A stretch of DNA of 64,000 nt from an uncultured bacterium (lineage in GTDB: Bacteria > Hydrothermota > Hydrothermia > WGAB01): NCBI GenBank assembly GCA_964406105.1, contig CAYOQK010000024.1, positions 27,294-91,293 on the forward strand, written 5' to 3'. The number at the start of each line of letters is the position of its first letter. Positions within the stretch are counted from its first letter, which is position 1. Below the pieces are notes generated by a model that saw only the letters and a list, made by a program, of their open reading frames with translations, had not been told where the DNA came from and made no database searches. The translations under genes and the position numbers were made by a program. This document shows, piece after piece, positions 4,403 to 24,905 of the stretch.

Positions 4403-5707
4403 TCAGAATCCTACGCCAAACTCTTGCAACACTTGAACGAATACCTGGGCCGCTCGGCCCTGCCCGTTGAGCTTATGCAACGGGAACCCCAAAAACACCA
4501 CCTGGGCAGGTCCACCAGCCGGATACCGCAGCGACACAAAGGCCGCTGACCAGTTGACCAGATCGGGGAACCGATACAACCCTTCGCTCATGGAGTCGGG
4601 AACGAAGCCTGTGATGTGGGACAGGATCGGCACCGAGAGCCACAGGCTGTCGGGATAGGGGGGCACCGAGGTGACCAGAGGCCAGGGAGGCAACAGGAAC
4701 TTGTCCAGCGCCAAGGAATCGGGTTCGGCCACGTGCAGGTAATCTCTGACGAAGTCGTTGACCGTGGCCCCTACCAGCCGTTGGTTGCTCACATAGAGTT
4801 TTCCTCCCTGGTCCAGGAACTGGGCCAAGGCCCCCTGGGCGCCGGTAAAGTGTCCTCCTGAGGCCCCGGCGTACCACAGCAGGACCTCAAATCCCAGATC
4901 GTTGACCACTGCGTTAAGGTCTATGGGGCTGTAGGGCAGCCCCTCTTCCACCCGCCACACGGAATACAGGACGCCCAGGGAATCCAGCACCTGACGATAA
5001 AAGATCCCAGCGGTATCCCCGGGTTCGTCGTCCACCAACAGCACGGAGCCCACCGCAGGCTTCACCACAAAAGTGTCGGCTCGGACCTCGGACAGGGCAC
5101 CGGCATCGTCCAAGGCACGCACATGGAACACCCGCACGCCCGGGGCGAGGTTTCGGAGGGTTACTCGGGTGGTTTCCGCCGAAACGAAATGGGCAAAGGA
5201 ATCGGCATCGGTATCCAGCCACCAGAAGTACCCTTGGATGGTTTCATCGCCATCCTCGTCGTGGCCTTCCCAATAGAAGGTGACCACAGGGAACACCGTG
5301 TCTTGGGGCAAACTGCCCGGCAGGAACATCACCGTGGGAGGCGTATTGACCACCGGCAACGTCAGGGTGGCCGGGGTAGGGTCCAGGGCCCCCTCGTTAT
5401 CCTGGGCCCACACATACACCGTGTGAAACACGGGTTCAGGGCCGGAGGTGAACACAAAGGTGCTGCAATGGGAAGTGGTAAACCCTCGTTGCTGGGTATC
5501 GTCCACTGCCACGAAAAACCCGATCACCTCGCCATCAGGGTCGTTGCCGTACCAGCATAGGTGTTGCCGAGCCCCGGTGGTGTCCACCGTTCCCTCAATG
5601 AACAGATGGGTTTCCGGGGGTTGGTTGGGGACCGGCTCCGGTGCCGGTACCCGCTGGCACGCAAAGGCAAGCACAAGCCCTGCCAAAACAAATCTCAATC
5701 GCTTCAT
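4403..5707 (-). CDS. lipoprotein with repeated WxGxDxDG beta-sandwich-like modules and a C-terminal class-I-GATase/ThuA-like region
   Basis: Lipobox LVLAFAC. Repeats CWYGNDPDGEV... / YWEGHDEDGDETI.... C-terminal VLLVDDEP...LLWYAGASGG...GGKLYVS pattern. Start overlaps the upstream gene by 4 nt. Confidence 0.6.
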   Translation of the reverse strand: MKRLRFVLAGLVLAFACQRVPAPEPVPNQPPETHLFIEGTVDTTGARQHLCWYGNDPDGEVIGFFVAVDDTQQRGFTTSHCSTFVFTSGPEPVFHTVYVWAQDNEGALDPTPATLTLPVVNTPPTVMFLPGSLPQDTVFPVVTFYWEGHDEDGDETIQGYFWWLDTDADSFAHFVSAETTRVTLRNLAPGVRVFHVRALDDAGALSEVRADTFVVKPAVGSVLLVDDEPGDTAGIFYRQVLDSLGVLYSVWRVEEGLPYSPIDLNAVVNDLGFEVLLWYAGASGGHFTGAQGALAQFLDQGGKLYVSNQRLVGATVNDFVRDYLHVAEPDSLALDKFLLPPWPLVTSVPPYPDSLWLSVPILSHITGFVPDSMSEGLYRFPDLVNWSAAFVSLRYPAGGPAQVVFLGFPLHKLNGQGRAAQVFVQVLQEFGVGF

Positions 5708-7518
5708 TTCACGATCAGAAACTTGGTTCGTTTCACCTGTCCCGTGGCGTGGTCCCGAACCACCACGTAGTACAGGCCCGTGGCCACTGGAAACCCGCGG
5801 TCGCTGATCAGGTTCCAGGCTTCCTCGCCGCTATAGGGATCATCGTGCTCCAGGGTTTTCACCAAGTCTCCAGCGAGGTTGTAGATGTAAAGGGTCGCCC
5901 GCTGGGGTAGGTTGTAGAACCGGATCTGGCGGCCATAGGCGCCTGGAGCATCAAACCGCGAGGAAAGGTGATAGGGGTTGGGGTATACGCCGATTTCTCG
6001 GTCTGGCTCGCTGGTGGGCGGGGTGCCAGGCACCACTCGGGTGGCGTTGTTTCTTAGGGCACTTTCCAGCGGTGGGAGGCCGATTTCAGGATCCCCTTGG
6101 TCAAAGGAAGTGACGGCGTACTCGTACACAAACCCGTTCTTCAGGCCGGTATCCTCAAACCGGTACCAGCCGCGATAGGCGCCGGTATCCACCGTGTCCG
6201 GCAGGCCCACGTTAAAGCCCAGGGAATCCACCCGATCAAACTCCTTCAGCAGGATCCAGGTGGTATCTGGCCAGTGTCGTCGGTACACCCGATACCCTTC
6301 AAAGTCCAATTTTCCGGTGCTGGGGTCGGGGGCGGTCTCTGGGCTTCGGTCCCAGTAGAGGGTGGCCCTGTGGTTCCCAGGGATCACCACCAGGCGTGGG
6401 GAAGGCGGAGGACCAGGGAGAACGTAGTGGGCATCGTAGGCCTTCTGGGCCCATCCGGCGTTTTCCAGCAGATGGTCCAATGATTCCCCACCCACAAAGG
6501 CCACCACCAACTGCACCGAATCCTGGTTAGACAACGAAGCAAAGGGGCCCACGGAGATCATGGAAATGGGATCGGGGTAGCCGTGTTCGGCCACGTACTC
6601 ATCATCCACATCTGGATCACGTAGAGTGTCGCTCAGGAGCTGGTAGCGTTGGATGTCCGACACCGAACCGGTCATGTCTTGCCAGGACCACCACTGGAAA
6701 CCCACCTGCAGAGAATCCAGGGGAATTCGGTGGTCATTGAACGCCACCCCCAGGAGTTTGAGCCCAATATACTGGGTGGCCACGGTGTCAAAGCCGTCGT
6801 TCCGCTCGTAAATGAGGTGCAAGGAATCCAGGTACACCAAACGTTTGTGCTGAAAGAAGGGGGTTCGGCCGAACTGGTCGCCCCAGAACTCCCGGTTACC
6901 AGTGACCAATTCGGCGTACATGCCCAAGAAGAGATCCAGGAGCAGCCCCAGGCCCGTGTAGTGAACGGTGTAGGTAACGATTACGAAATCGTCGGCAAAG
7001 GGGTAACTCCAGGCATAACTGCGGAGATCCACCTTCAGGTGCAGCGGGGTGTGGTTGGGTACAGGTTGGAGATCGTCGTAGAAGGTGGCCAAGAAATCCT
7101 CCTCGGAGACGGCCTCAGGTGAGTAGTAGGGAGAGGTCAACAGGCTGGAGCGGATGCGTATGGTGTCGCTATCTGCTGGGGTGGGGTAAAACTCAAAGCC
7201 CTCAGAGCCTGCGGTGGCGCTGGTGGCGTCCACCACGCCGGTGGTCACCAGGGTATCGCCCTCGGTGGTCACCGCACCCACCCAAAGGCCTCCCCGATAC
7301 AGGTGTTCGGTACCCGACCCCCGGGGGTACTCCAAGGAGGGCAAGGGGTCGCCGGTGGCAGGGTCATACACCCGGAACCCGTTGCCCAGCATGCCAAAGT
7401 TGGTAATGGTCAACGACAGGTTGCCCACCCGGGTGTAGTGGGTGATGTCGGTTTTTGCGACCAGAGGGGCCACAACGAGGCCCACTCCGACGAAAACGGG
7501 CCAGAGGCGTCGGATCAC
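5704..7518 (-). CDS. secreted protein with T9SS C-terminal sorting domain
   Basis: 604 aa. N-terminal hydrophobic signal. C-terminus GLYYVVVRDHATGQVKRTKFLIVK matches the T9SS CTD. Has an FN3-like internal region. 4-nt overlaps on both sides indicate operon coupling. Confidence 0.7.
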   Translation of the reverse strand: MIRRLWPVFVGVGLVVAPLVAKTDITHYTRVGNLSLTITNFGMLGNGFRVYDPATGDPLPSLEYPRGSGTEHLYRGGLWVGAVTTEGDTLVTTGVVDATSATAGSEGFEFYPTPADSDTIRIRSSLLTSPYYSPEAVSEEDFLATFYDDLQPVPNHTPLHLKVDLRSYAWSYPFADDFVIVTYTVHYTGLGLLLDLFLGMYAELVTGNREFWGDQFGRTPFFQHKRLVYLDSLHLIYERNDGFDTVATQYIGLKLLGVAFNDHRIPLDSLQVGFQWWSWQDMTGSVSDIQRYQLLSDTLRDPDVDDEYVAEHGYPDPISMISVGPFASLSNQDSVQLVVAFVGGESLDHLLENAGWAQKAYDAHYVLPGPPPSPRLVVIPGNHRATLYWDRSPETAPDPSTGKLDFEGYRVYRRHWPDTTWILLKEFDRVDSLGFNVGLPDTVDTGAYRGWYRFEDTGLKNGFVYEYAVTSFDQGDPEIGLPPLESALRNNATRVVPGTPPTSEPDREIGVYPNPYHLSSRFDAPGAYGRQIRFYNLPQRATLYIYNLAGDLVKTLEHDDPYSGEEAWNLISDRGFPVATGLYYVVVRDHATGQVKRTKFLIVK

Positions 7519-12414: not shown

Positions 12415-14772
12415 ATGCATCACATCCAAAAGGCAGCTGTACTCGGAGCCGGGACCATGGGGAGCCAGATCGCTGCCCACCTCGCCAACATTGGCGTGGA
12501 TGTCCTGCTCCTGGACATCGTGCCGCCCGATGCTCAAGACCCGCAGGATCGCAATCGTTTCCCTCGCTTGGCCCTGCAAAGGCTTCAGAAGTCTCAACCC
12601 CCGGCTTTTTACCACCCTGATTTTGCGGGTCGCATCCGCATCGGGAACTTTGAGGACGATCTCCCCAAGGTCTCGGAGGTGGACTGGATCGTGGAGGCCG
12701 TGGTAGAACGGCTGGACATCAAGCGCGCCCTGTTTGAGCGCGTGGAGCAGTTCCGGACTCCCGGCACCCTGGTGAGCACCAACACCTCCGGGCTCTCGGT
12801 GAATCAGCTGGCCGCAGGGCGGTCCGAGGATTTCCGCCGCCACTTCCTGGGCACCCACTTCTTCAATCCTCCGCGCTTCATGAAGCTCTTGGAACTGGTG
12901 CCCCAGCAAGACACAGACCCCGAGGTGCTTCGGTTCATGGTGGATTTCGGCCGACGCCGGCTGGGAAAAGGTGTGGTGATCGCCAAAGACACCCCCAACT
13001 TCATCGCCAACCGTTTGGGCGTGTTCGGCATCCTGCACACCATCCACACCATGGTGGAAATGGATCTCACCGTGGAGGAGGTGGATGCCATCACGGGACG
13101 AGCCATGGGGCGACCCCGCACCGCCACCTTCCGCACCATAGACCTGGTGGGCTTGGATGTGCTCCTGCACGTTGCCCGCAATGTCTACGAGAACGCACCC
13201 AACGACGAGATGCGAGAGATCTTCAAACCCCCGGAGTTTCTGGAAAAGATGGTGGAACGGGGGCTCCTGGGCGACAAAGCCGGTGGCGGCTTTTACAAGA
13301 AGGAAAACGGTCGCCGCTTGGTGCTGGACTGGAAAACCCTGGAATACCGGGAACGACAGAAGCCGAAGTTCGCCTCGGTGGACACGGCCCTGTTAGAGGA
13401 CACCCCAGAGGCCCGAATCCGGGTACTGCTCCAAGGCAAGGATAAGGCCGCGGAGTTCGCCTGGCGTACGCTCTCGGCCTTCCTGACGTATGCGGCCCGC
13501 CGTATCCCTGAGATCGCCGACGATATCCTCAGCGTGGACAACGCCATCAAATGGGGCTTCAACTTCCGCCTGGGTCCCTTTGAAACCTACGATGCCATCG
13601 GAGTGCGGTGGTTCGTGGAACGGCTGGAACAGGAAGGCCAACCGGTACCTGAACGGGTGCAGGAACTCCTGGACGCAGGGAAAGACCGGTTTTACCTGCA
13701 AGAACCCACCCGTCGGCTGTACTTTGACTTCACCCGCAAAGACCACGTCCCCGAGGAACTGCCCGAAGGGGTTATCGTGCTGGAATACCTGAAGGCAGAG
13801 GGCCGCGAAGTTCTGGCGAATCCCGAGGCCAGCCTCATTGACCTGGGCGATGGCGTCGCCCTGCTGGAGTTCCACACCAAAGCCAATGCCTTGGGTCCAG
13901 GCACCATCCAGATGATCTTTGACAGCCTGGAAAAGGTCCGCAGCGACTTTGACGCCTTGGTGCTGGGCAACCGAGGCCGCCACTTCTCCGCGGGCGCAAA
14001 CCTGGCGTTGATCCTGCAGGCCATCGCCGAGGAGGAATGGGACGAACTGGACTACATGGTGCGGCGGTTCCAGCAGGCGGCTATGGCGCTCAAGTACTTT
14101 GAGAAGCCCGTGGTGGCCGCACCCTTTGGACGGGTACTCGGTGGAGGCACGGAGATCACCATGCACACCCACCGGGCCCAGGCGGCCGCCGAGACCTACA
14201 TGGGGCTGGTGGAGGTGGCCGTAGGCCTGCTGCCTGCAGGCGGTGGCACCAAGGAAACCCTGATCCGCTTTACCCAGGACATCATGGCAATCCCAGATGC
14301 CGATCCCTACCCCTTCCTGCGGGAGGCCCTGACCCAGATCGGGATGGCTAAGGTGTCCATGAGCGCCTACGAGGCCCAACAGATGCGGTACCTGCGGCCC
14401 GGCGACGGTGTAACGATCAACGACGATTTCCTGCTGCACGACGCCAAACAGGTGGCTTTAGAGATGGCTCGTACGGGGTTCACACCGCCCACCCCGAAGA
14501 AGATCAAGGTCACCGGTGAATCCGGCTTTGCGTATCTCCAGATGCTCATCTACAACCTGCTGGAGGGCAAACAGATCACTGAGCACGATGCCTTTATCGT
14601 CACCCAGATCGCTCGGGTACTCACCGGAGGCTCTGTTCCTTACGGCACCGAGCTCACGGAGCAGGATCTGCTGGATTTGGAGCGTGAGGCCTTCCTGCGG
14701 CTCTGTGGCACAGAGAAAACGCAGCAGCGCATCATCCACATGCTCAACACCGGCAAACCCCTCCGCAACTAA
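12415..14772 (+). CDS. fadN: 3-hydroxyacyl-CoA dehydrogenase / enoyl-CoA hydratase fusion (FadN-type)
   Basis: 785 aa. N-terminal Rossmann [14 protein letters not shown] (HAD NAD-binding), C-terminal crotonase fold ([17 protein letters not shown]). Followed by thiolase and ACAD as in the B. subtilis fadN-fadA-fadE operon. Confidence 0.85.
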
Positions 14773-14786
14773 CAGGAGGAACCATC

Positions 14787-15962
14787 ATGAGACAGGCCGT
14801 TTTGGCTTTTCCCGTGCGCACCCCGGTGGGCAAAGCACCCCGGGGCAGTTTGAAGGACACCCGGCCCGACGAACTGGCGGCCCTTGTGATCCGCGAAGTG
14901 GTCCGCCGGTCGGGCATTGACCCCCAGGAAGTGGACGACGTGATCCTGGGGTGCGCCTTCCCCGAGGCCGAACAGGGGATGAACGTGGCTCGGGTGGCCC
15001 TGATCCGGGCCGGCTTGCCGAACTCCGTGCCCGGAATGACCGTCAACCGGTTCTGCTCCTCTGGGCTTCAGGCGATCGCTATCGCTGCAGAACGCGTGAT
15101 GGTGGGGGCCGCAGATCTCATCATCGCCGGAGGCGTGGAGTCCATGAGCCGCGTGCCCATGGGCGGCTTCCGCTCCTCTCCCAACCCGTACCTGATGGAG
15201 CACTACCCCCAACTCTACATGGCCATGGGGCTTACCGCTGAGCGGGTGGCGGAAAAGTACGGCATTTCACGCGAGGACCAGGACCGCTTCGGATACGAGA
15301 GCCACATGAAGGCGGCCCGCGCGATCCGCGAGGGCAAGTTTCAGGAAGAGATCGTTCCCGTTCACACCCGCGTGATCCGTCGCACCGAGGACGGCGAGCA
15401 AGTGGTGCAGGAGATCACCTTGGAGGTGGACGAGGGGGTACGGTTTGACACCAGTTTGGAGAAAATGGCCCGATTGAAACCCGTGTTCAAACAGGGGGGA
15501 ACCGTCACTGCAGGCAATTCCTCGCAAATGAGCGATGGAGCAGCGGCGGTGCTCGTGATGTCGGAGGAGAAGGCCAAAAGCCTGGGCATTGAACCCATGG
15601 CGTACTTCCGTGGATACGCCGTGGCAGGCGTGCCTCCCGAGATCATGGGCATCGGCCCGGTGGAGGCCGTGCCAAAGGTGCTACGCCTTACCGGCGTACG
15701 CCTGGAAGACCTGGATCTCATTGAGCTGAACGAGGCCTTTGCCGCCCAATCCTTGGCCGTCATTCGGGAATTGAACCTGCCCTACGAAAAGGTGAACGTG
15801 AACGGTGGCGCCATTGCCTTGGGCCACCCCCTGGGCTGCACGGGCGCCAAACTCACCGCTACCCTGCTCTATGAGATGAAGCGCCGAGATGCCACCTTGG
15901 GCCTGGTGACCATGTGCATCGGCGGCGGCATGGGCGCCGCTGGCATCTTTGAACGCCGTTAA
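14787..15962 (+). CDS. fadA: acetyl-CoA C-acyltransferase (thiolase)
   Basis: 391 aa. Active-site Cys context [12 protein letters not shown]-terminal GGGMG motif region. Confidence 0.9.
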
Positions 15963-15976
15963 CCGGAGGGAAAACC

Positions 15977-17749
15977 ATGGCACAGGATACCCCGCTGTAC
16001 AAAAAGGGCGGAGGCTTTCTGCTGGCCGATACCCCGGCCGAGGAGATGTTCACCCCCGAGGAGTTCACCGAAGAGCAACGGATGTTTGCCCAGGCCGCAG
16101 ACGAGTTCATGGAAAAGGAGGTGCTCCCCAAAAACGAACAGATTGAAAAGCAGGACTTTGACCTGCTTCGTTACCTGATGAAGAAGGCTGGGGAACTGGG
16201 CCTGCTGGCGGTGGACATCCCGGAGAAGTACGGAGGCCTGGGGCTGGACAAGGTGTCTTCCATGCTCATCGCCGAGCGCATGGCCAAACAGGGGTCTTTC
16301 AGCGTAACCTGGGGCGCCCACACCGGCATCGGTACCCTGCCCATCGTGTTTTTCGGCACTGAAGAACAGCGGCAAAAGTACCTGCCGGGCCTGGCCTCTG
16401 CCGACATCATCGGGGCCTATGCCCTCACCGAACCCGGGGCAGGCACAGATGCCATGAACATCAAAACCCGGGCCGTTCTCTCGGACGATGGCAAGTCGTA
16501 CATTCTCAACGGCAGCAAACAGTTCATCACCAATGCGGCCATCGCCGATCTCTTCACGGTCTTTGCCAAGATTGACGGCGAGAAGTTCACGGCCTTTCTG
16601 GTGGAACGGGATACCCCGGGCCTGGAACTGGGCGCCGAGGAAAAGAAACTGGGCATCAAGGGATCCAGCACCCGAAGCCTGACCTTCAACAACGTCAAGG
16701 TGCCCGTGGAGAACGTGGTGGGCGAGATCGGCAAAGGACACCACATTGCCTTCGGCATCCTCAACATCGGGCGATACAAACTGGGCGTGGGCTCCGTAGG
16801 AGCAGCCAAGGAGGCTCTGAAGGTAGCGGTGAACTACGCCAAAGAGCGGGTGCAATTCGGCCAACCCATTGCCAACTTCGGCCTGATCCAAGAAAAGATC
16901 GCCCACATGACCACCCGCATCTTCGTTACCGAAACCATGGCGTACCGCTTGGCCGGGCTCCTGGACGAAGCCATGAAGGGCCTGGATCCCAACGCACCGG
17001 ACTACACCCAGAAGTCCTGGAATGCCGTGGCGGAGTATGCGGTGGAGTGCTCCATCCTCAAGGTGTACGGCTCCGAGATGCTGGACTACGTGGTGGACGA
17101 AACCGTACAGATCTTCGGAGGCTACGGCTACACCCAGGAGTACCCCGCAGAGCAGTACTACCGGGATTCACGGATCAATCGGATCTTTGAGGGCACCAAC
17201 GAGATCAACCGCATCCTGATCCCCGGGATGCTCATGCGGCGGGCCCTGAAGGGCCTGATCCCACTGGTCCCCGTAGCGGCCAAAACCGCCAAAGAGACCC
17301 TCACCCTAATGCCCACCATGATGCCGCGGCCCGAGGGGCCGTTTTCCAATGAGAAGTTCGCTCTGCAGATGGCCAAACGGATCGCCCTCACCCTGGCTGC
17401 GGTGGCAGCCGACAAGTTCAAAGAGGCCCTGCGTCAGGAGCAAGAGGTGCTCGCCGGTCTGGCGGATATCGTCACCGAGGTGTATGCCCTGGAAAGCATC
17501 CTCCTGCGTGCCCTCAAGTCGGGCCACCGTTTGATGGCCTCCATGGTAGAGATGTACACCTACGAGGCCATGAAGCGCATAGAGCTCCGGGCCTACGAGA
17601 TCCTGCCGTACATGAGCGAGGGCGACGAGCTCCGCACCCTGATCTCCACCGTCCGAAAACTGGTTCGGCCCTTTAGCCCGCCGAACCTCATCCAAAAAAG
17701 GAGGGAGATCGCCCGCACGGTCATTGACCAGGGCAAGTATCCCTTCTAA
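15977..17749 (+). CDS. fadE: acyl-CoA dehydrogenase (long form with C-terminal extension)
   Basis: 590 aa. ACAD N-terminal, middle and C-terminal domain motifs (YALTEPGAGTDA, GGYGYTQEYP...RDSRINRIFEGTNEI). Confidence 0.85.
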   Translation: MAQDTPLYKKGGGFLLADTPAEEMFTPEEFTEEQRMFAQAADEFMEKEVLPKNEQIEKQDFDLLRYLMKKAGELGLLAVDIPEKYGGLGLDKVSSMLIAERMAKQGSFSVTWGAHTGIGTLPIVFFGTEEQRQKYLPGLASADIIGAYALTEPGAGTDAMNIKTRAVLSDDGKSYILNGSKQFITNAAIADLFTVFAKIDGEKFTAFLVERDTPGLELGAEEKKLGIKGSSTRSLTFNNVKVPVENVVGEIGKGHHIAFGILNIGRYKLGVGSVGAAKEALKVAVNYAKERVQFGQPIANFGLIQEKIAHMTTRIFVTETMAYRLAGLLDEAMKGLDPNAPDYTQKSWNAVAEYAVECSILKVYGSEMLDYVVDETVQIFGGYGYTQEYPAEQYYRDSRINRIFEGTNEINRILIPGMLMRRALKGLIPLVPVAAKTAKETLTLMPTMMPRPEGPFSNEKFALQMAKRIALTLAAVAADKFKEALRQEQEVLAGLADIVTEVYALESILLRALKSGHRLMASMVEMYTYEAMKRIELRAYEILPYMSEGDELRTLISTVRKLVRPFSPPNLIQKRREIARTVIDQGKYPF

Positions 17750-17763
17750 AAGGAGGGCCCATC

Positions 17764-19449
17764 ATGGATCGGCCCTGGTATGCCCATTACGATCAAGGGG
17801 TTCCTCGGAGCATTGAGTACCCCCGGGTTCCCCTTACGGAGCTCGTGGAACGGGCAGCCCGAAAGTACCCGAACAACGTTGCCTTTTCCTTCTTTGGCGT
17901 AGAGCAAACCTACCACGAGTTCATTGCCCAGGTGCATCGCTTTGCTGCCGCCCTCTATGACCTGGGGATCCGCAAAGGCGATCGCGTTTCCCTGATGCTG
18001 CCCAACTCGCCCCAGTTCCTGATCGCCTTTTACGGTGCCCTCAAAATCGGTGCCACGGTGGTACAAACGAACCCCCTGTACATGCCCTACGAGTTGGAAC
18101 ACATCCTGAACGATTCGGGCACCGAGACCATCGTGGCTCTGCATGTTTTCCATCCCCGCATTGAGGCGGTGCGCAGCAAAACCCCCTTGCGCCGCATCAT
18201 TTACACCTGCCTTGCCGAGTACCTGCCCTGGTGGATGAAGCCCCTGTACCGGTTGCGGCTCTTAGCGAAACGACAAACCCTCCGTGTACCCCGAGGTGCC
18301 GGCATCTATCGCTTCCAAGAACTCCTGCGCTCGGCTTCTCCCACTCCTCCCCAGGTGGACATTGACCCGATGGAAGACGTGGCGTTGTTCCAATACACCG
18401 GGGGCACTACGGGCACACCCAAGGCCGCCATGCTCACCCACTTCAACCTGGTGGCCAACACCTATCAAACCATCACCTGGGACACCATGATGGAGGAGGG
18501 CCACGAGGTGGTCATGGGTGCCCTGCCCTTCTTCCACGTGTACGGCATGACCGTGGCCATGAACCTGGCGATGGTGTCGGGTAGCAAACTGGTGCTGGTT
18601 CCCAAGTTTGAAGTCAAACAGGTGGTCAAACTCCTGGAGAAACATCGCGTGACCCTTTTTCCCGGTGCCCCCACCATGTACATCGCCGTGATCAACATGC
18701 CAGGGGTAGAAAAGCACGACCTGTCGTCCATCAAGGTGTGCATCTCGGGCTCTGCTCCCCTGCCTGTGAAGGTCAAGGAGGACTTTGAACGCCTCACAGG
18801 GGCCAAACTGGTGGAAGGCTATGGCCTGTCGGAGGCCTCTCCTGTGACCCACTGCAATCCCATTCTGGGGGTCAACAAGGCCGGCAGCATCGGGTTGCCG
18901 TTCCCGGACACCGACGCCAAGATCGTGGACCCGGAAACCGGCGAACGTGAGATGCCTGTGGGCGAACCGGGTGAGCTGGTGGTCCGCGGCCCTCAGGTCA
19001 TGAAGGGCTATTGGAACCGCCCCGAGGAAACCGCCCTGACCCTCCGTGACGGGTGGCTACACACCGGAGACATCGCCCGGATGGACGAAGAGGGCTACTT
19101 TTACATCGTGGACCGCAAGAAGGACATGATCCTGGCCTCAGGGTTCAACATCTATCCTCGGGAGGTGGAGGAGGTCCTGTTCCGACACCCTAAGGTTAAG
19201 GAAGTGGCGGTCATCGGGGTACCTCATCCTTACCGCGGGGAAACGGTCAAGGCCTTCGTGGTTCCCAAGGAGGGTGAAACCCTCACCGCCGAGGAGATCA
19301 TCCAGTTCTGCCGCCAAAACATGGCGAAGTTCAAGTGCCCCACGGAGGTGGAATTCCGCACGGAGCTGCCCAAGACCTTCGTGGGCAAGGTGCTCCGACG
19401 CGTATTGCGGGAAGAGGAATTGAAGAAACGCGGCCAGGAATCCGCTTAA
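17764..19449 (+). CDS. fadD: long-chain-fatty-acid--CoA ligase
   Basis: 561 aa. AMP-binding motif YTGGTTGTPKAAMLTH, GYGLSE, and C-terminal motif K in the KTFVGKVLRRVLREE region. Confidence 0.88.
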   Translation: MDRPWYAHYDQGVPRSIEYPRVPLTELVERAARKYPNNVAFSFFGVEQTYHEFIAQVHRFAAALYDLGIRKGDRVSLMLPNSPQFLIAFYGALKIGATVVQTNPLYMPYELEHILNDSGTETIVALHVFHPRIEAVRSKTPLRRIIYTCLAEYLPWWMKPLYRLRLLAKRQTLRVPRGAGIYRFQELLRSASPTPPQVDIDPMEDVALFQYTGGTTGTPKAAMLTHFNLVANTYQTITWDTMMEEGHEVVMGALPFFHVYGMTVAMNLAMVSGSKLVLVPKFEVKQVVKLLEKHRVTLFPGAPTMYIAVINMPGVEKHDLSSIKVCISGSAPLPVKVKEDFERLTGAKLVEGYGLSEASPVTHCNPILGVNKAGSIGLPFPDTDAKIVDPETGEREMPVGEPGELVVRGPQVMKGYWNRPEETALTLRDGWLHTGDIARMDEEGYFYIVDRKKDMILASGFNIYPREVEEVLFRHPKVKEVAVIGVPHPYRGETVKAFVVPKEGETLTAEEIIQFCRQNMAKFKCPTEVEFRTELPKTFVGKVLRRVLREEELKKRGQESA

Positions 19450-19467: not shown

Positions 19468-20322
19468 TCACCCTACCGCCAAAAGGATCATGCTGCTCAT
19501 CATGTAGAGCGAGGCGAACTTGAAGAGCAGGAAATTCCGCCGGGGGGACGGCCGCGTGGCGCTGGTCAATGCCAAAAGGGTGAGGGCCACAGAAAGCACC
19601 ACCAGCACCTGCAAGATCCCCGCTGTCACCCCGATTCGCCAGGCAGCCACGATCATCGTCAGGGCCGCGAGGATGGCAGAACCGGCGATCATCGCATAGG
19701 CGAACCGAGGCCCGTACACGATGGGGATGGTCGGCACCCCGGCACGGCGGTAATCCTCATCGTACCGGAGCGCAAAGGTCACGATATGGGTGGGGATCCA
19801 AAAGAGGACCGCTAAGGCCAACAGGAGCCCCACCTCGTCTATTTGACCTGCAGACAACACTCGGCCGGCCAACACGGGCATGCCTCCAGCAGCACCACCC
19901 CACAGGATAGACCAAGCTGTGCGCCGCTTGAGCCAAAGGGTGTATACCACCACATCAAAAAACCACCCCGCAAACACTACAAGGCCATAGAGGGCGGAAA
20001 GGCGCAGGGCCCAACCGACCCCCAACACCGAGAGCAGAACCCCCAACCCCAACGCCTCGCTGGGGGACACCCGATGGGTAGGGAGGGGCCGCCAACAGGT
20101 GCGGTACATCCGGGCATCAATATCCCGGTCATACCACATGTTGACCACCGTGCTGCCAATGATGGCCAGGTACAAACTGCCCACCAACCCCACCACCTGG
20201 CTCCAGGGCCCTAAGGTGTGGGCACTGAAGTACCCGGCGATGCCGGTGAGTACCAGCAGGCCGGTTTGCAGGCTTTTGGTGAGCTGCCAGTAATTGCGAA
20301 GCCGATTCCAAAGGGTTTGCAT
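19468..20322 (-). CDS. ctaB: protoheme IX farnesyltransferase (heme O synthase), UbiA family
   Basis: UbiA-type polytopic protein starting MQTLWNRLRNYWQLTKSLQTGLLVLTGIAGY. ATG at 20322 has an AAGGGA RBS. The ORF-track N-extension to 20649 overlaps the upstream gene and is rejected. Confidence 0.8.
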   Translation of the reverse strand: MQTLWNRLRNYWQLTKSLQTGLLVLTGIAGYFSAHTLGPWSQVVGLVGSLYLAIIGSTVVNMWYDRDIDARMYRTCWRPLPTHRVSPSEALGLGVLLSVLGVGWALRLSALYGLVVFAGWFFDVVVYTLWLKRRTAWSILWGGAAGGMPVLAGRVLSAGQIDEVGLLLALAVLFWIPTHIVTFALRYDEDYRRAGVPTIPIVYGPRFAYAMIAGSAILAALTMIVAAWRIGVTAGILQVLVVLSVALTLLALTSATRPSPRRNFLLFKFASLYMMSSMILLAVG

Positions 20323-20342: not shown

Positions 20343-20370
20343 TTGCGGGGCGGCGCTGCAGCGCCGCCCC
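20343..20370 (-). terminator. perfect 12-4-12 palindrome GCGGGGCGGCGC-TGCA-GCGCCGCCCCGC; candidate intrinsic terminator/attenuator between the FGE-like gene and ctaB
   Basis: Seen in sequence. On the minus strand it is followed by AAGCCCUUUUC. Confidence 0.4.
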
Positions 20371-20383
20371 GCAACGCCCGGCT

Positions 20384-21328
20384 TTACGGCTCTTCAGCCG
20401 ATTCACCCTCTTGGACCTCCCGAACACAGCGGAATCCCACGGTAGGACCCGCAAATTCCGGAGGCGCGAAGTTCCGCCATGTGGCCCGGCAGTCAATCTC
20501 GTAGTCGGTGAAACTGCCTCCCTTGAGGATGCGCTGGTGGGTTTCCTCAATGTCGTCAGACACCCACTCCCACACGTTGCCCGCCATATCGTACGCGCCG
20601 TAGGGGCTTGCCGCGTTCTCGGTGTGGAACCCCAGGTGGGTTTGGCCATTGTAAAAGCCCACAGGCGTGGTTTCTCCTAAGCCACCCCACAGGCTCTCAA
20701 AGGGATCACGACTCTTGTAGTAGTTGGCGTGGGCAGGGGTGATCTCATGTCCCCACGGATAGGGCCGACCGTCCGTGCCGCGGGCCGCCTTTTCCCACTC
20801 GGCCTCGGTGGGGATCCGATAGCCGTAGTACCGGCAGTAGGCCCAGGCACCGAAATAGGTTACAAAGGTGGCCGGATGGTTCTCAAAGCCCCGCTGCACC
20901 ACAAAGGAGTCGCCCTCCCAGTGCACCTTTTGGCCCACCCGGTGGAGCGGATACGCCAGGTACCATCCTGCGTCAATCTTCTCCTCGTGCTTACCACCGT
21001 GGTACGGCTCCCCTGGGTAAAAGGCCATCACGCCCTCTTCGGAGAGTTTGATGAGGTTCCGGGCGGCTGAGTCACGAAGCGCCTGATTCAGGAACCGGGC
21101 CCACTGAGCATTGGTGACAGGGGTTTTCATGATCTCGTAGTCGTAGTCCAGCACCATCCGCCGGTTATGGAGACCAAACAGGAACTCGCCGGCCGGTACC
21201 CGCACCCACTCCTCGGGGTTAACCCCGGTGTCCACCGTGGGCACAGCTTCCGGCGGCTCCGGCCGGGGCGCACAGGCAGCCATCAACAACACACCCAGCG
21301 TCAGGCTAAGAGCGACCTTGCGGTTCAT
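20384..21328 (-). CDS. FGE/SUMF1-domain lipoprotein (NirV-like)
   Basis: 314 aa. Lipobox LLMAACA. Formylglycine-generating-enzyme fold motifs YRIPTEAEWEKAARG, GNVWEWVSD, RGGSF. Its start overlaps the upstream HCO-like gene by 4 nt. Confidence 0.75.
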   Translation of the reverse strand: MNRKVALSLTLGVLLMAACAPRPEPPEAVPTVDTGVNPEEWVRVPAGEFLFGLHNRRMVLDYDYEIMKTPVTNAQWARFLNQALRDSAARNLIKLSEEGVMAFYPGEPYHGGKHEEKIDAGWYLAYPLHRVGQKVHWEGDSFVVQRGFENHPATFVTYFGAWAYCRYYGYRIPTEAEWEKAARGTDGRPYPWGHEITPAHANYYKSRDPFESLWGGLGETTPVGFYNGQTHLGFHTENAASPYGAYDMAGNVWEWVSDDIEETHQRILKGGSFTDYEIDCRATWRNFAPPEFAGPTVGFRCVREVQEGESAEEP

Positions 21329-22821
21329 TTCTGCTCCTCCTCAAACACCACAGGCATGGCGGGGTTCCGCCACTCCTCTACCCACCGCCCCTGGGGCTTA
21401 AAGAGATCCACCAGTCGCCAGAGCAGGAACAGGGCCAATCCCGTGAGGAACAGGAACAGGCTCACATCCATCACCAGGAGGGTGCGGGCCACCAGAGGCT
21501 GCTCCTGGATCTCGGGAACCCAGAGCCGCTTCATGATGAGCACGTTGGCGCCCAGGGTGGCCACATCAGAGCCCAGGATCACGATCCAGCCGAAGATCTG
21601 GCGGGCCTTGCCCTTCAGGCCAGCCACATCCAGGTAGTAAAGGAGCAACACCGTGGCGATCATGAAGGCCAGGATGTGCCAGTGGCCCACCAGACCGATC
21701 TTCTCTTCCCGCAGCAGAATGCTCCGGAAGAACTCCAACTTGATGGCCATGAACACGCCGGGAGCGGTAACCACCAGGTTCATGAACATCATCTGCCAGG
21801 TGGCTCCCCAGGGCAGGGGATCGTGGAACAGGGCCTTGAGTTTCTGTCCGAACCCGGCCTTGTCCGGGGACAACCCTTGGCGAGCCAGGCCCACCTCAAT
21901 TTGCCGTCGCCACACGAAGATGGTGAGCAGCAGCGAGGCGAGCATCAGGAACCCGGCCCCCACGTTGATGATGTGGTGAGCGATGGCACGGAAGGGCACC
22001 ACCATCCAAGCCCCCACACTGATGATCACCGTGCCGATGATCATCAGGGGAATGGCCCACTTCTGAAGCCGCCCTTTGAAGTCCGTCCACCGGCTCACGA
22101 TGAACACCGCCATGACCGCGATGTCCACGAGCATGATGTGGAGGTGTCCCACGATGGCCAGCTCCATGGGCGTGTGGTAGGGGATGCGGATGATGTCCTC
22201 GGAGAGGAACACCTCAAAGCTGTGGCCGAAGAAGGACCCTGGAATGGCGCCGTAAATGGCCGAGATCAGTGTGGCCACAACAGCGATGAACACCGCGAGC
22301 TTTTCAATGTCCACACCACTTGCCGTTTTGAGGTACGGGGCATCGGGTGGCAACCGATGGTCACGGGACCAAGGCCAGAAGGCCACAGCCAACCACACCC
22401 CACCGAAGAAAAGCAGGCTCTGGCCAAAGAGGAACAGGCCGTGGAACACCCAGTTATGCCCCCAGTAGGCAAACAGCAGTCCGAAGATCATGGCGGACAG
22501 GTAGCCCACGGTCACCAGCACGTGGATCCCGATCCGGTGTACCTCCTTGATGCGGTACACCGCGGTGAGCATGTACACCTCCAGAGCCACCACGGCCATG
22601 GCGAAGGTGTGGTACAGGAAGATGAGCCGACCTTCGCGCTCCAGGGGATCCAGTTTCATCCCCCACAATTTGATCCAGAACTCCCTTACCCCCCACTCAG
22701 CCATGGGCCCGGAGAGCATGCCCATAAAGGCCGCCTGCAGGGCAATGAGCGCCACCGTGCCCAGGATGAGCCCCCGAGAGGTGCCGAAAAGGTAGCGCAA
22801 ACGCGACGCCAGTCCCTTCAT
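21325..22821 (-). CDS. heme-copper oxidase superfamily catalytic subunit homolog (divergent; candidate NO/O2 reductase)
   Basis: 498 aa, about 12 predicted TM helices. His ligands at canonical positions: helix II LYHTFAMAV, helix VI GHLHIM, helix VII/VIII AIAHHIINVG (compare bovine WAHHMFTVG), helix X GHWHILAF (compare AHFHYV). No Tyr at the HPEVY position. Confidence 0.6.
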   Translation of the reverse strand: MKGLASRLRYLFGTSRGLILGTVALIALQAAFMGMLSGPMAEWGVREFWIKLWGMKLDPLEREGRLIFLYHTFAMAVVALEVYMLTAVYRIKEVHRIGIHVLVTVGYLSAMIFGLLFAYWGHNWVFHGLFLFGQSLLFFGGVWLAVAFWPWSRDHRLPPDAPYLKTASGVDIEKLAVFIAVVATLISAIYGAIPGSFFGHSFEVFLSEDIIRIPYHTPMELAIVGHLHIMLVDIAVMAVFIVSRWTDFKGRLQKWAIPLMIIGTVIISVGAWMVVPFRAIAHHIINVGAGFLMLASLLLTIFVWRRQIEVGLARQGLSPDKAGFGQKLKALFHDPLPWGATWQMMFMNLVVTAPGVFMAIKLEFFRSILLREEKIGLVGHWHILAFMIATVLLLYYLDVAGLKGKARQIFGWIVILGSDVATLGANVLIMKRLWVPEIQEQPLVARTLLVMDVSLFLFLTGLALFLLWRLVDLFKPQGRWVEEWRNPAMPVVFEEEQK

Positions 22822-22891: not shown

Positions 22892-23518
22892 TTATTTGGC
22901 GGAAATCCGCCGGACCAACCCCCAGGTGTACGCCAGGGTCATGAGCAAGAGCAGGGGCGAGAGAATGGCAAACACCACAGGGGCACTAAAGAACAACAGC
23001 TGCTTGCCCGCCTTCAAGAAGGCCAGCGCCATACCTCCCAGGCTGATGAGTACACCCCCCACCGACACCCACACAAAGCCTGCCGGTGCCTGAGCCTGGG
23101 TCACCGCCAGAATGGGGACGAGCACGATGGTGAGCCCCGCGATGCCGTGTACAATGGGCAGGATCACCCGACCCAACCCCTGTAAACCGGGGTTCAGGTA
23201 ACCCACGGCAATCAACAGGAACCCCACCACCGCAAACACGGTGTACGCTGTGCCCAGCGAGGGCTTGACGTCGTACACCAGCCCTGTGGCCAGGCCCAGG
23301 GGGATCAAGGTGGTCACCACAACCACCCAGGGGGATCCCAGGATGTCATAGCCCAGGAAAATGAGCAGCAACCCTGCCACCAGCAACACCAGGAAGGACA
23401 GCCCATAGGCCACCTTGGCCCCCTTCACCAGCTTGTCACCGGCCTGGTTCAAACGAACCAGCATGTAGATGGCCGTTAAGCCCGTCAACAACAACAACAC
23501 CTTATCCCACCAGTGCAT
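22892..23518 (-). CDS. polytopic membrane protein (about 6 TM), no Cys, first gene of the HCO-like operon
   Basis: 208 aa, strongly hydrophobic throughout. No CxxCH or cupredoxin motifs. Confidence 0.5.
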   Translation of the reverse strand: MHWWDKVLLLLTGLTAIYMLVRLNQAGDKLVKGAKVAYGLSFLVLLVAGLLLIFLGYDILGSPWVVVVTTLIPLGLATGLVYDVKPSLGTAYTVFAVVGFLLIAVGYLNPGLQGLGRVILPIVHGIAGLTIVLVPILAVTQAQAPAGFVWVSVGGVLISLGGMALAFLKAGKQLLFFSAPVVFAILSPLLLLMTLAYTWGLVRRISAK

Positions 23519-23832
23519 CGTGCACCTCCTTCACGGTTTTGGGAAAACCCTTGGTGAGTCCTTCTACGCACCCCGCGGAAGCACCACCCTCCCCCTCTAC
23601 AAACCTGTGCAGAGGCAAAACTCTTACACGCCGCTCCAGTACCCGTGTCGTCATCTCTCCTCGGGCCTGCCCTGTGTGGTAGTAACCGCTTACTTTAAAA
23701 CGTTACGGGGGCAGGGCGACGGTGTCAAGCATTTCACAGGACCTCCAAGGGGCAGGGCCCTGTAGGGCTCTTTGTGATCTTAGGAGGATCCACAGGGAGA
23801 GGAGTTTCGCAGAGCCGAGGGGGAACACATCA

Positions 23833-23915
23833 TGCGAGGGGCGGGACTCGAACCCGCACGGGAATACCCCACCAGATCCTAAATCTGGCGCGTCTGCCTA
23901 TTCCGCCACCCTCGC
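23833..23915 (-). tRNA. tRNA-Leu (anticodon TAG)
   Basis: Minus-strand read GCGAGGGTGGCGGAATAGGCAGACGCGCCAGATTTAGGATCTGGTGGGGTATTCCCGTGCGGGTTCGAGTCCCGCCCCTCGCA. 7-bp acceptor stem, anticodon loop TT-TAG-GA, long variable arm (type II), GGTTCGAGTCC T-arm. CCA not encoded. Confidence 0.85.
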
Positions 23916-23930
23916 AGGTATGGGTAAAGG

Positions 23931-24905
23931 TTATACAGCACCCCCTTCGGGGGTGGGAGCAGTTTCAAACACCCCAAACTGCAAGAAGCGTTGCCGCCGG
24001 TGCTGGAGCACCTCCTCGGGCGAAAGCCGTCGGAGATCGGCCAGGTGCCGCAACACGGCCTCCTTCACACGGCGAATTGCCTCCTCAGGCTGACGATGCG
24101 CACCCCCCAGAGGCTCCGGGATCACCTCGTCCACCACCCCAAGCCGATGGAGATCCTTGGAGGTCAACCGCAGTACCTCTGCGGCCTTGGGGGCCTCCGC
24201 ACCGTCTTTCCAAAGGATGGCTGCACACCCTTCGGGCGAGATCACCGAGTAAATGGCGTATTCCAGCATCAGCACTCGGTTGCCCACCCCAATGGCCAGC
24301 GCTCCACCGGATCCGCCCTCGCCGATCACCACGGCCACAATAGGCACCTTCACCTCCAACATGGTTTGGATGGCCGTGGCGATGGCCCGAGACTGCCCTC
24401 GTTCCTCGGCCTCAATCCCTGGAAAGGCCCCAGGAGTGTCAATCAAGGTAACGATGGGCAACCCGAATTTATCCGCCAAACGAAAGAGCCGCTCCGCCTT
24501 GCGGTACCCTTCGGGGTTGGGCATCCCAAAGTTGCGCTGCACTCGTTCTTTGACATCGCGCCCCTTTTCCTCGCCCACCACCACCCACCGTTGGTCCTCC
24601 ACCTGGATCAACCCACCCACAATAGCGGGATCATCGCCATAGTACCGATCGCCGTGGAGTTCCAAGAAGTCGGTGGCCATCCCGCGGATGTAGTCCAGGG
24701 CATGGGGCCGATCGGCATGACGGGCTACCTGCACGATCTGCCACGGGGTGAGATGGGCATAGATCTTCCGGCGGATCCGTTCGGCCCGGGCCTCCAGATC
24801 CCGGATCTCGTCGGCCAGATCCGGCCGCGTATCCAGCAATCGCTTCAATTCTTCTAAACGCTTCTCAATGTCGTAAAGGGGTCGCTCAAAGTCCAGCAAC
24901 CTCAT
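23931..24905 (-). CDS. accA: acetyl-CoA carboxylase carboxyltransferase subunit alpha
   Basis: 324 aa. MRLLDFERPLYDIEKRLEEL N-terminus and carboxyltransferase motifs (PIVAVVIGEGGSGGALA). Confidence 0.88.
   Translation of the reverse strand: MRLLDFERPLYDIEKRLEELKRLLDTRPDLADEIRDLEARAERIRRKIYAHLTPWQIVQVARHADRPHALDYIRGMATDFLELHGDRYYGDDPAIVGGLIQVEDQRWVVVGEEKGRDVKERVQRNFGMPNPEGYRKAERLFRLADKFGLPIVTLIDTPGAFPGIEAEERGQSRAIATAIQTMLEVKVPIVAVVIGEGGSGGALAIGVGNRVLMLEYAIYSVISPEGCAAILWKDGAEAPKAAEVLRLTSKDLHRLGVVDEVIPEPLGGAHRQPEEAIRRVKEAVLRHLADLRRLSPEEVLQHRRQRFLQFGVFETAPTPEGGAV

Follow-up and report, generated by a model that had tools for sequence, protein, structure and literature searches.

A 12-helix membrane protein family with the subunit I fold of heme-copper oxidoreductases and new partner subunits, probably an unclassified and deeply divergent relative of these enzymes

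Can a membrane protein that matches no heme-copper oxidoreductase (HCO) profile be an HCO-like catalytic subunit, and if so, what would it reduce? The question is raised by a 498-amino-acid (aa) protein with 12 transmembrane (TM) helices, encoded in a 64,000-nucleotide (nt) stretch of DNA from an uncultured bacterium of the Hydrothermota (contig CAYOQK010000024.1, positions 27,294 to 91,293), which we call the window. An earlier note on this DNA, made from the sequence, had described the product as a divergent HCO catalytic subunit without the helix-VI tyrosine, possibly from one of the poorly characterized families of nitric oxide reductases (NORs). Our analysis indicates that the protein belongs to what is probably a previously unclassified, deeply divergent HCO-like family with new partner subunits. 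The gene itself is:

21325..22821, minus strand, HCO-like 12-TM catalytic subunit, 498 aa; ATG start, GGAGG 8 nt upstream

We confirmed the open reading frame (ORF) on the minus strand, and all four motifs quoted for its product are present: LYHTFAMAV at residues 69-77, GHLHIM at 225-230, AIAHHIINVG at 279-288, and GHWHILAF at 379-386. A search of 5.8 billion proteins with the 498-aa protein returned at least 2,667 homologous clusters (E ≤ 1e-3), nearly all about 500 aa long with a common start, all labelled "hypothetical," and none with a precomputed Pfam domain. This many clusters, together with the kept start and length, indicate that the ORF is real and not a chance occurrence. When 1.84 billion 50%-identity representatives were searched exhaustively with a profile, 364 clusters matched, and a scan of one genome per species (185,579 species genomes) located about 580 loci that carry the gene. 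Carriers are mostly Anaerolineae, with others in WOR-3, Aminicenantes, Marinimicrobia, Calditrichia, Ignavibacteria, and Asgard archaea; metagenome-assembled genomes labelled Anaerolinea, Thermanaerothrix, Caldithrix, and Melioribacteraceae are among the loci. The closest orthologs, at 90-91%, come from a metagenome-assembled genome (MAG) of candidate division WOR-3 and from an unclassified MAG. No plasmid-borne homologs of the protein were found, nor any earlier description of the family in the literature searched, the coverage of which was incomplete.

Profile libraries did not place the protein. Scans of Pfam-A (E ≤ 0.01) and NCBIfam assigned it to no family, and the check proposed in the earlier note, for a best match to a canonical A-, B-, or C-type oxidase or cNOR profile, found none in Pfam or NCBIfam. 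PF00115 (COX1) was unmatched in 16 diverse members at E ≤ 10 and in 10 distant members at E ≤ 1, and PF05940 (NnrS) was unmatched in the 498-aa protein, in the 16 diverse members at E ≤ 10, and in the 10 distant members at E ≤ 1. No solved structure was matched by sequence, either by phmmer with the single protein or by the family hidden Markov model (HMM) against PDB sequences. By the usual profile-match criterion, the 498-aa protein is not a recognized HCO.

The solid evidence for a relationship comes from the fold. An AlphaFold2 (AF2) model of the protein, based on a 35-sequence alignment (pLDDT 82.2, pTM 0.86), has 12 long helices, as the earlier note had counted. TM1 to TM6 span about residues 15-34, 59-88, 93-119, 124-147, 172-196, and 218-245, and TM7 to TM12 about 251-272, 278-314, 335-360, 371-399, 404-434, and 437-474. 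These helices form the 12-TM core of HCO subunit I with its three 4-helix arcs, and the structural neighbors of the protein are HCO subunits. By this model, the structure prediction that had been suggested, the protein has the HCO subunit-I fold. In the sequence, the residue at +4 from the helix-VI His is Met230, neither Tyr nor Glu. Likeness to styrene oxide isomerase (8pnu) and MGST, which are trimeric 4-TM proteins of heme or MAPEG type, may be generic for 4-helix membrane bundles; those consist of separate small subunits, whereas here the 12 helices are fused in one chain.

We assessed conservation in 125 distinct family sequences, consisting of 80 species loci and database members down to 20% identity. 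His71 (TM2), His127 (start of TM4), His226 (TM6), and His380 and His382 (both TM10) are present in all 125, His228 (TM6) and His282 (TM7-8 junction) in 124 each, and Met230 (TM6, four residues after His226) in 121, while the pair at the end of TM11 is kept at 109 (Lys431) and 113 (Arg432). With the N terminus in the cytoplasm, based on a positive-inside reading of the sequence, all seven histidines fall, like those of HCOs, within the membrane's outer third. The claim that histidines occupy all six canonical ligand positions holds for the 498-aa protein but not as a family trait: only 2/125 sequences (the 498-aa protein and a 90%-identical relative) have the second His of "AHH," at position 283, where Met, Ile, Thr, or Lys is usual, so five of the six positions are family features. 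The replacement of the helix-VI Tyr and the lack of a Glu at +4 were read correctly. His228, there called an extra His at +2, is present as stated, though the description under-weighted it, and the invariant His127 went unmentioned.

Several canonical features are missing from the same set. No Tyr is conserved at ≥90% on TM6 to TM8, and neither position of the cross-linked His-Tyr cofactor (helix VI +4, or helix VII as in the C family) has a conserved Tyr, the +4 residue being Met230. The canonical three-His CuB/FeB set, with one His from helix VI and an adjacent pair from the end of helix VII, is not kept; His226 and His282 are invariant or nearly so and position 283 is not. His228 and Met230 are possible substitutes for the missing second helix-VII His.

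To give these residues HCO equivalents, we used reference sequences compared with the PDB: NorB (Pseudomonas aeruginosa) is identical to 3o0r_B and bovine COX1 to 1occ_A, and the ba3 subunit I is a full-length match to 1ehk_A and differs at one residue from 3eh3_A in the printed alignment. The Escherichia coli CyoB sequence in the COX1+CyoB profile is provisional. In-register alignment (hhalign) of the family profile with bovine COX1+CyoB covered 413 columns (E = 0.01, score 28.9; reversed null, 17.5). It equates, on helices II to VI, H71 with H61, H226 with H240, H228 with E242, and M230 with Y244, and, on helices VII to XI, H282/H283 with H290/H291, H380/H382 with H376/H378, and K431-R432 with R438-R439, which is the mapping onto the bovine enzyme that the earlier note had drawn. 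The second-best alignment to a five-sequence HCO profile (ba3 numbering) gave the same equivalences save on helix VI. On these weak in-register alignments, the invariant histidines would sit where HCOs bind the low-spin heme (His71, His382) and the active-site heme (His380), His226 and His282 would take the non-heme metal positions, and the Lys431-Arg432 pair would lie where HCOs hold heme propionates.

Similarity to HCOs is also suggested, at lower strength than by the fold, by profile comparison. Against the five-sequence multi-family HCO profile, the family profile scored 52.9 in hhalign (probability 83.5%, E = 8e-6), with reversed or block-shuffled nulls at 14-24, and in all seven sets of HCO sub-profiles the real score exceeded the reversed one. 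When hhalign was run in global mode against single HCO sequences, it returned end-to-end matches without meaning. Sequence homology to HCOs is best called suggestive.

The protein also contains an internal repeat. TM5-8 (residues 166-330) and TM9-12 (331-498) are homologous within the family (hhalign, 96.5%, E = 7.4e-10, score 63; reversed nulls, 16-23), and when the two segments of one protein are compared by BLASTP, E < 0.05 is reached in 103/125 members (E = 0.007 in the 498-aa protein). TM1-4 is more weakly related to the other two thirds (hhalign, E = 4e-5 and 1e-4). A 118-sequence profile of ba3-type B-family oxidases has no comparable internal similarity (scores 14-18). The TM5-8/TM9-12 duplication is thus clearly detectable at the level of sequence. 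The repeat alignment places H226/H228 on H380/H382, H71 on both H228 and H382, and H127 on H282, and by this alignment the invariant TM6 HxH plus Met (H226-L-H228-I-M230) is a copy of the TM10 HxH motif.

This repeat suggests a place for the histidines that have no role in a canonical HCO. In known HCOs, the two His of the helix-X HxH face different pores and bind different hemes. Because the helix-X motif faces two pores, one His of the TM6 HxH would face the active-site pore and serve there as a metal-B ligand, and the second would point into the third pore, which to our knowledge is empty in all known HCOs. By analogy, His127 may lie in the third pore alongside one TM6 His. The E242 position, which aligns with His228, holds the D-channel Glu in A-type oxidases. 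Candidates for the TM6/His127 site are a proton relay, a propionate or Ca-type site, and a third cofactor site.

The genes around the 12-TM gene suggest what kind of complex it belongs to. In the window it is part of an operon of four co-directional minus-strand genes, in the order 7-TM partner, 12-TM protein, FGE-fold lipoprotein, and heme O synthase:

22892..23518, minus strand, 7-TM partner, 208 aa; one invariant His (His124); presumably the second membrane subunit
20384..21328, minus strand, extracytoplasmic lipoprotein with the FGE-sulfatase fold, 314 aa; PF03781, E = 6.6e-44
19468..20322, minus strand, heme O synthase (CtaB/CyoE-type UbiA prenyltransferase), 284 aa; PF01040, E = 6e-48; TIGR01473, E = 8e-62

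We counted operon context in the best 80 of the about 580 loci. The FGE-like gene lies directly downstream in 78/80, ctaB is present in 72/80, and the 7-TM partner in 62/80, and absences mostly coincide with contig ends. The model of the 7-TM partner (pLDDT 94) is a generic 7-TM bundle. In a Hodarchaeales (Asgard) locus, the HCO-like gene occurs with the partner gene and ctaB but no FGE gene, and a 28%-identical archaeal member has the partner gene directly upstream (hhalign, 99.3%). Since both keep the pair, the 7-TM partner and the 12-TM protein form the conserved core; the lipoprotein is accessory, because the membrane pair and ctaB occur without it in the Asgard locus and at some bacterial loci. 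Three further unannotated membrane-protein families, all absent from the window, recur in orthologous clusters: a 227-aa family with one invariant Cys and one invariant His (L001 11345-12028; 34/80), a 274-aa family (L009 4431-5255; 17/80), and a 153-aa family (L051 4861-5322; 10/80).

The lipoprotein gene overlaps the stop of the 12-TM gene by 4 nt (ATGA). Its product has a signal peptide with the lipobox MNRKVALSLTLGVLLMAAC, the Cys of which is kept in 92% of 74 orthologs. The Cu(I)-binding catalytic Cys pair of FGE is not present, as the matching segment holds one Cys that is not conserved, and a fused homolog, P0122, holds none. Conserved residues are mostly structural motifs of the FGE fold, and the best NCBIfam similarities are to EgtB, SenA, and PvdO-type enzymes. 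In P0122 (785 aa, 8 cluster members), the HCO-like part is naturally fused, by way of a 13th TM helix, to an FGE domain, which ties the 12-TM and FGE proteins functionally; because the fusion runs through this helix, the FGE domain is placed outside the cell, at the usual side of HCO subunit II.

We assigned the start of ctaB to the ATG at 20322, and orthologs are 282-302 aa long. Its product scores 209.5 bits against TIGR01473, just under the cut-off of 210.3, and the families ranked next are heme O synthases too. Among recurrent neighbors in the 80 loci we found no cupredoxin subunit and no conserved cytochrome c subunit, and there is neither a NorC-like gene among the neighbors nor an N-terminal extension on the 12-TM protein.

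Besides the operon genes, the sole recurrent enzyme in the neighborhood is cd1 nitrite reductase (nirS; PF02239, E about 1e-120), found on the same strand beside the operon in four loci. In L012 (2696-4489; 79% identical ortholog) and L015 (232-1977; 64%), which are among the closest relatives of the window locus, it is directly upstream of the partner gene, and in L017 (10359-12593) and L018 (10524-12788) the gene directly downstream of the cluster encodes a three-domain C1-C2-NirS form. This form has been described in Chloroflexi by Schwartz et al. (2022; PMC8756737), with no other denitrification gene nearby. Other neighbors include Rrf2 regulators in 5 loci, YgbA_NO (PF11756) in 3, and DUF1858+DUF2249 proteins in 5. 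A NOR with its own heme O synthase has a precedent, as eNOR operons carry one (bioRxiv 10.64898/2026.01.22.701106).

A gene for a CRP/FNR-family regulator, without the FNR Cys cluster, occurs in 35/80 loci. We counted palindromes de novo in the region upstream of the first gene and found TGTGA-N6-TCACA or TTGAC-N4-GTCAA (≤1 mismatch) in 40/80 loci, against about 2 expected, with most sites 60-130 nt before the start codon. Both motifs have been assigned to HcpR (Rodionov et al. 2005; PMC1274295). In the window, a scan for sigma-70 promoters found nothing, and Rfam identified no riboswitch in the leader of about 310 nt, matching only a tRNA-Leu. One candidate operator was found:

23723..23738, minus strand, CRP-like site TGTGAAATGCTTGACA, weak and uncertain; fits TGTGA-N6-TCACA with 1 mismatch, overlaps a TTGACA, and lies 221 nt upstream of the operon's first gene

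Based on these observations, we propose that the 12-TM protein is the catalytic subunit of an unclassified, very divergent HCO relative that reduces NO, and give this reading a probability of about 0.5. Of its parts, an HCO-fold heme/metal enzyme is very probable, and NO reduction by the complex, which we infer from gene context, has at best even odds. In the proposed complex, the 12-TM protein, the 7-TM partner, and the outward-facing FGE-fold lipoprotein would assemble in the membrane. By what is known of HCOs, His71 and His382 would bind the low-spin heme and His380 the active-site heme, probably heme O from the operon's own synthase. The non-heme metal would be held by His282 and one TM6 His, with Met230 or the other TM6 His as third ligand, and Lys431 and Arg432 would hold heme propionates. 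Quinol is the likely electron donor, since conserved subunits of the cytochrome c or cupredoxin type are lacking. The reaction would be NO to N2O, serving detoxification or acting as the missing NOR beside nirS, under the control of a dedicated CRP/FNR-family or Rrf2 regulator.

Several observations weigh against this reading. Neither the Pfam and NCBIfam libraries nor the PDB sequence search links the family to HCOs, and the in-register alignments, including those of His71, His380, and His382 onto bovine H61, H376, and H378, are weak (E = 0.01-0.04). The significant hhalign alignment is offset by four helices, with family TM5-8 on HCO helices IX-XII, so that GHLHIM falls on the helix-X HxH (E = 3.8e-7 for this pair alone). 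The 118-sequence B-family-only profile, built from a homolog search that returned only Deinococcota ba3-type oxidases, scored 27.5 against a reversed-profile null of 27.1, which is not significant; because this deep profile scored at null, the link by sequence depends on the small profile of several HCO families and on structure. O2 reductases typically contain heme O, and the heme of cNOR and qNOR is heme b. Adjacency to nirS is limited to 4-5/80 loci, and short distant members of about 430-450 aa (L090 7001-8311, L091 7001-8353) keep the invariant His and lack both ctaB and the FGE gene, although in L091, which lies in a complete genome of 1.63 Mb, the 7-TM partner is still upstream. The CRP/FNR regulators could not be identified as HcpR, DNR, or NnrR, as all NCBIfam matches were far below cut-offs; they have weak similarity to FnrL, FixK, and FtrB, and regulators of this class also sense O2, CO, and other signals. 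The 64-kb window contains no regulator gene, just the weak operator-like site, which is not present in the three closest relatives.

Comparison with known enzymes shows where the family departs from them. In architecture it is closest to cNOR, qNOR, or cbb3 oxidase, yet it has no profile match, no HH pair, neither the Tyr nor the Glu, and no subunit II; the earlier interpretation, in which the combination of residues is typical of neither A/B/C-type oxidases nor cNOR/qNOR, is supported in part. Sequence-profile membership was not detected with the C-type branch, consisting of cbb3 CcoN (3mk7) and cNOR NorB (3o0r, 4xyd). These enzymes have HH at the helix VII/VIII junction, whereas the family has one conserved His there, and cNOR has HxxxE on helix VI, with Glu as an FeB ligand, in place of HxH plus Met. 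The family differs further in its extra invariant His at the start of TM4, in the absence of cytochrome c subunits (CcoO/P, NorC), and in the heme O synthase of its operon, as cbb3 and cNOR are heme b enzymes. In qNOR (3ayg, 6fwf) there is a NorC-like N-terminal fusion, with three His and a Glu for FeB and with heme b, none of which the family shows. NnrS (PF05940) belongs to NO-stress regulons and is a 12-TM heme/copper protein of unknown chemistry. It resembles the family in being a polytopic membrane protein with many His that is regulated together with genes for denitrification and NO stress, but PF05940 is unmatched, and the structural neighbors of the family are HCO subunits.

Other readings share part of the evidence. 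Heme O and heme A are hallmarks of A- and B-type oxygen reductases, and the dedicated heme O synthase would also suit a quinol oxidase that reduces or scavenges O2 to protect anaerobes, with heme O and a His/His/Met Cu site in place of His-Tyr. The near-invariant Met230, one turn from His226, would suit Cu(I); carriers are labelled with largely anaerobic lineages, which need O2 defence; and CRP/FNR-family regulators, here weakly similar to FnrL, FixK, and FtrB, often respond to O2. We consider this oxidase unlikely, since the cross-linked Tyr is required in every known HCO oxygen reductase (PMC11214002) and a conserved Tyr is absent from TM6, TM7, and TM8. The regulators also lack the FNR Fe-S Cys motif, and the nirS, Rrf2, YgbA_NO, and DUF1858 neighbors favor NO over O2. 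A different redox chemistry, in which the lipoprotein is the substrate site and the HCO-like subunit a membrane electron module for sulfur/thiol compounds, peroxide, N2O, or nitrite, would fit the presence of the FGE lipoprotein in 78/80 main-clade loci and in P0122, its similarities to enzymes such as EgtB, SenA, and PvdO, and the lack of a canonical HCO counterpart for His127 and one of H226/H228. This is a still weaker candidate, given that the lipoprotein lacks the FGE Cys pair, that its conserved residues are mostly structural, and that the Asgard and some bacterial loci have the membrane pair with ctaB and no FGE gene.

Two more possibilities carry less weight than these. Outside the membrane pair, no gene is more tightly associated with the family, in bacteria and Asgard archaea alike, than that for heme O synthase, and no electron-donor subunit is conserved, both of which would suit a non-reductase that handles heme O together with CtaB, as carrier, chaperone, modifying enzyme, or sensor. 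That role is improbable: a 12-TM catalytic fold with seven ligand-like His and a Lys/Arg pair exceeds the needs of a carrier, the contexts with nirS and with regulators point to a final role in catalysis, and distant members exist without ctaB. Membership in the eNOR, sNOR, or gNOR type, which the earlier note had proposed, or in nNOR, is very improbable. Those families lie within the HCO superfamily, are B-family relatives, and include gNOR, with a subunit II of cupredoxin fold (Murali et al. 2024, PNAS; PMC11214002). Like the 12-TM family, they have the HCO fold without the cross-linked Tyr and are linked to denitrification genes; gNOR offers a precedent for a replaced metal-B His (PMC11214002), and eNOR operons share the heme O synthase. 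In contrast, the 12-TM family has 7-TM and FGE-fold lipoprotein partners and no cupredoxin subunit, PF00115 is unmatched, and the B-family profile, an indirect stand-in for those families' own profiles, scored at null.

If the 12-TM complex does reduce NO, surveys of denitrification and N2O sources based on PF00115 or on HMMs for nor genes would miss a widespread NO-handling enzyme, with about 580 loci. It would explain why Chloroflexi with an unusual nirS seem to lack a nearby NOR (PMC8756737), and why genomes labelled as largely anaerobic lineages contain a heme O synthase. It would also present an HCO scaffold with different metal-B ligands (His/His and, in addition, His or Met) and with two invariant His of unexplained role. 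As far as could be found, this would be the first HCO-fold family with a 4-helix repeat visible in sequence, making the long-assumed origin of the superfamily by triplication directly testable. A bolder extension, which we regard as doubtful, is that the family is a symmetric relic or sister HCO lineage that still shows the 4-helix triplication, each of the two clear duplicates having a VGH-x-H helix and, after it, a His position in a loop. It would have an extra third-pore cofactor site formed by His127 and one of H226/H228, and with the 7-TM subunit and the FGE-fold lipoprotein would be a new class of NO- or otherwise small-molecule-reducing respiratory enzyme, the "missing NOR" by the nirS of Chloroflexi, present also in Asgard archaea.

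Two further features belong to the operon and its upstream edge:

20343..20374, minus strand, perfect 14-bp GC-rich hairpin followed by CCCUUUUC, between the lipoprotein gene and ctaB; RNA -43.3 kcal/mol, z -3.9
23832..23916, minus strand, tRNA-Leu (anticodon TAG), between accA (23931-24905) and the operon, followed by the leader of about 310 nt

The hairpin was not called in a terminator scan because its T run is short, and it is possibly a partial terminator, an attenuator, or an mRNA-stabilizing element inside the operon. Just downstream of the operon, on the opposite strand, is a fatty-acid beta-oxidation cluster (12415-19449, plus strand) with genes for a FadB-like 3-hydroxyacyl-CoA dehydrogenase/enoyl-CoA hydratase, a 391-aa ORF, a FadE-type acyl-CoA dehydrogenase, and a long-chain acyl-CoA ligase. 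Three other ORFs in the window have no Pfam match at E ≤ 1e-5 (57499-62487, plus strand, 1,662 aa; 5704-7518, minus strand, 604 aa; 4403-5707, minus strand, 434 aa). The window also encodes LptF/G, BamA, a TonB-dependent receptor, and PorV/PorQ-like genes, a content consistent with a diderm of the FCB group.

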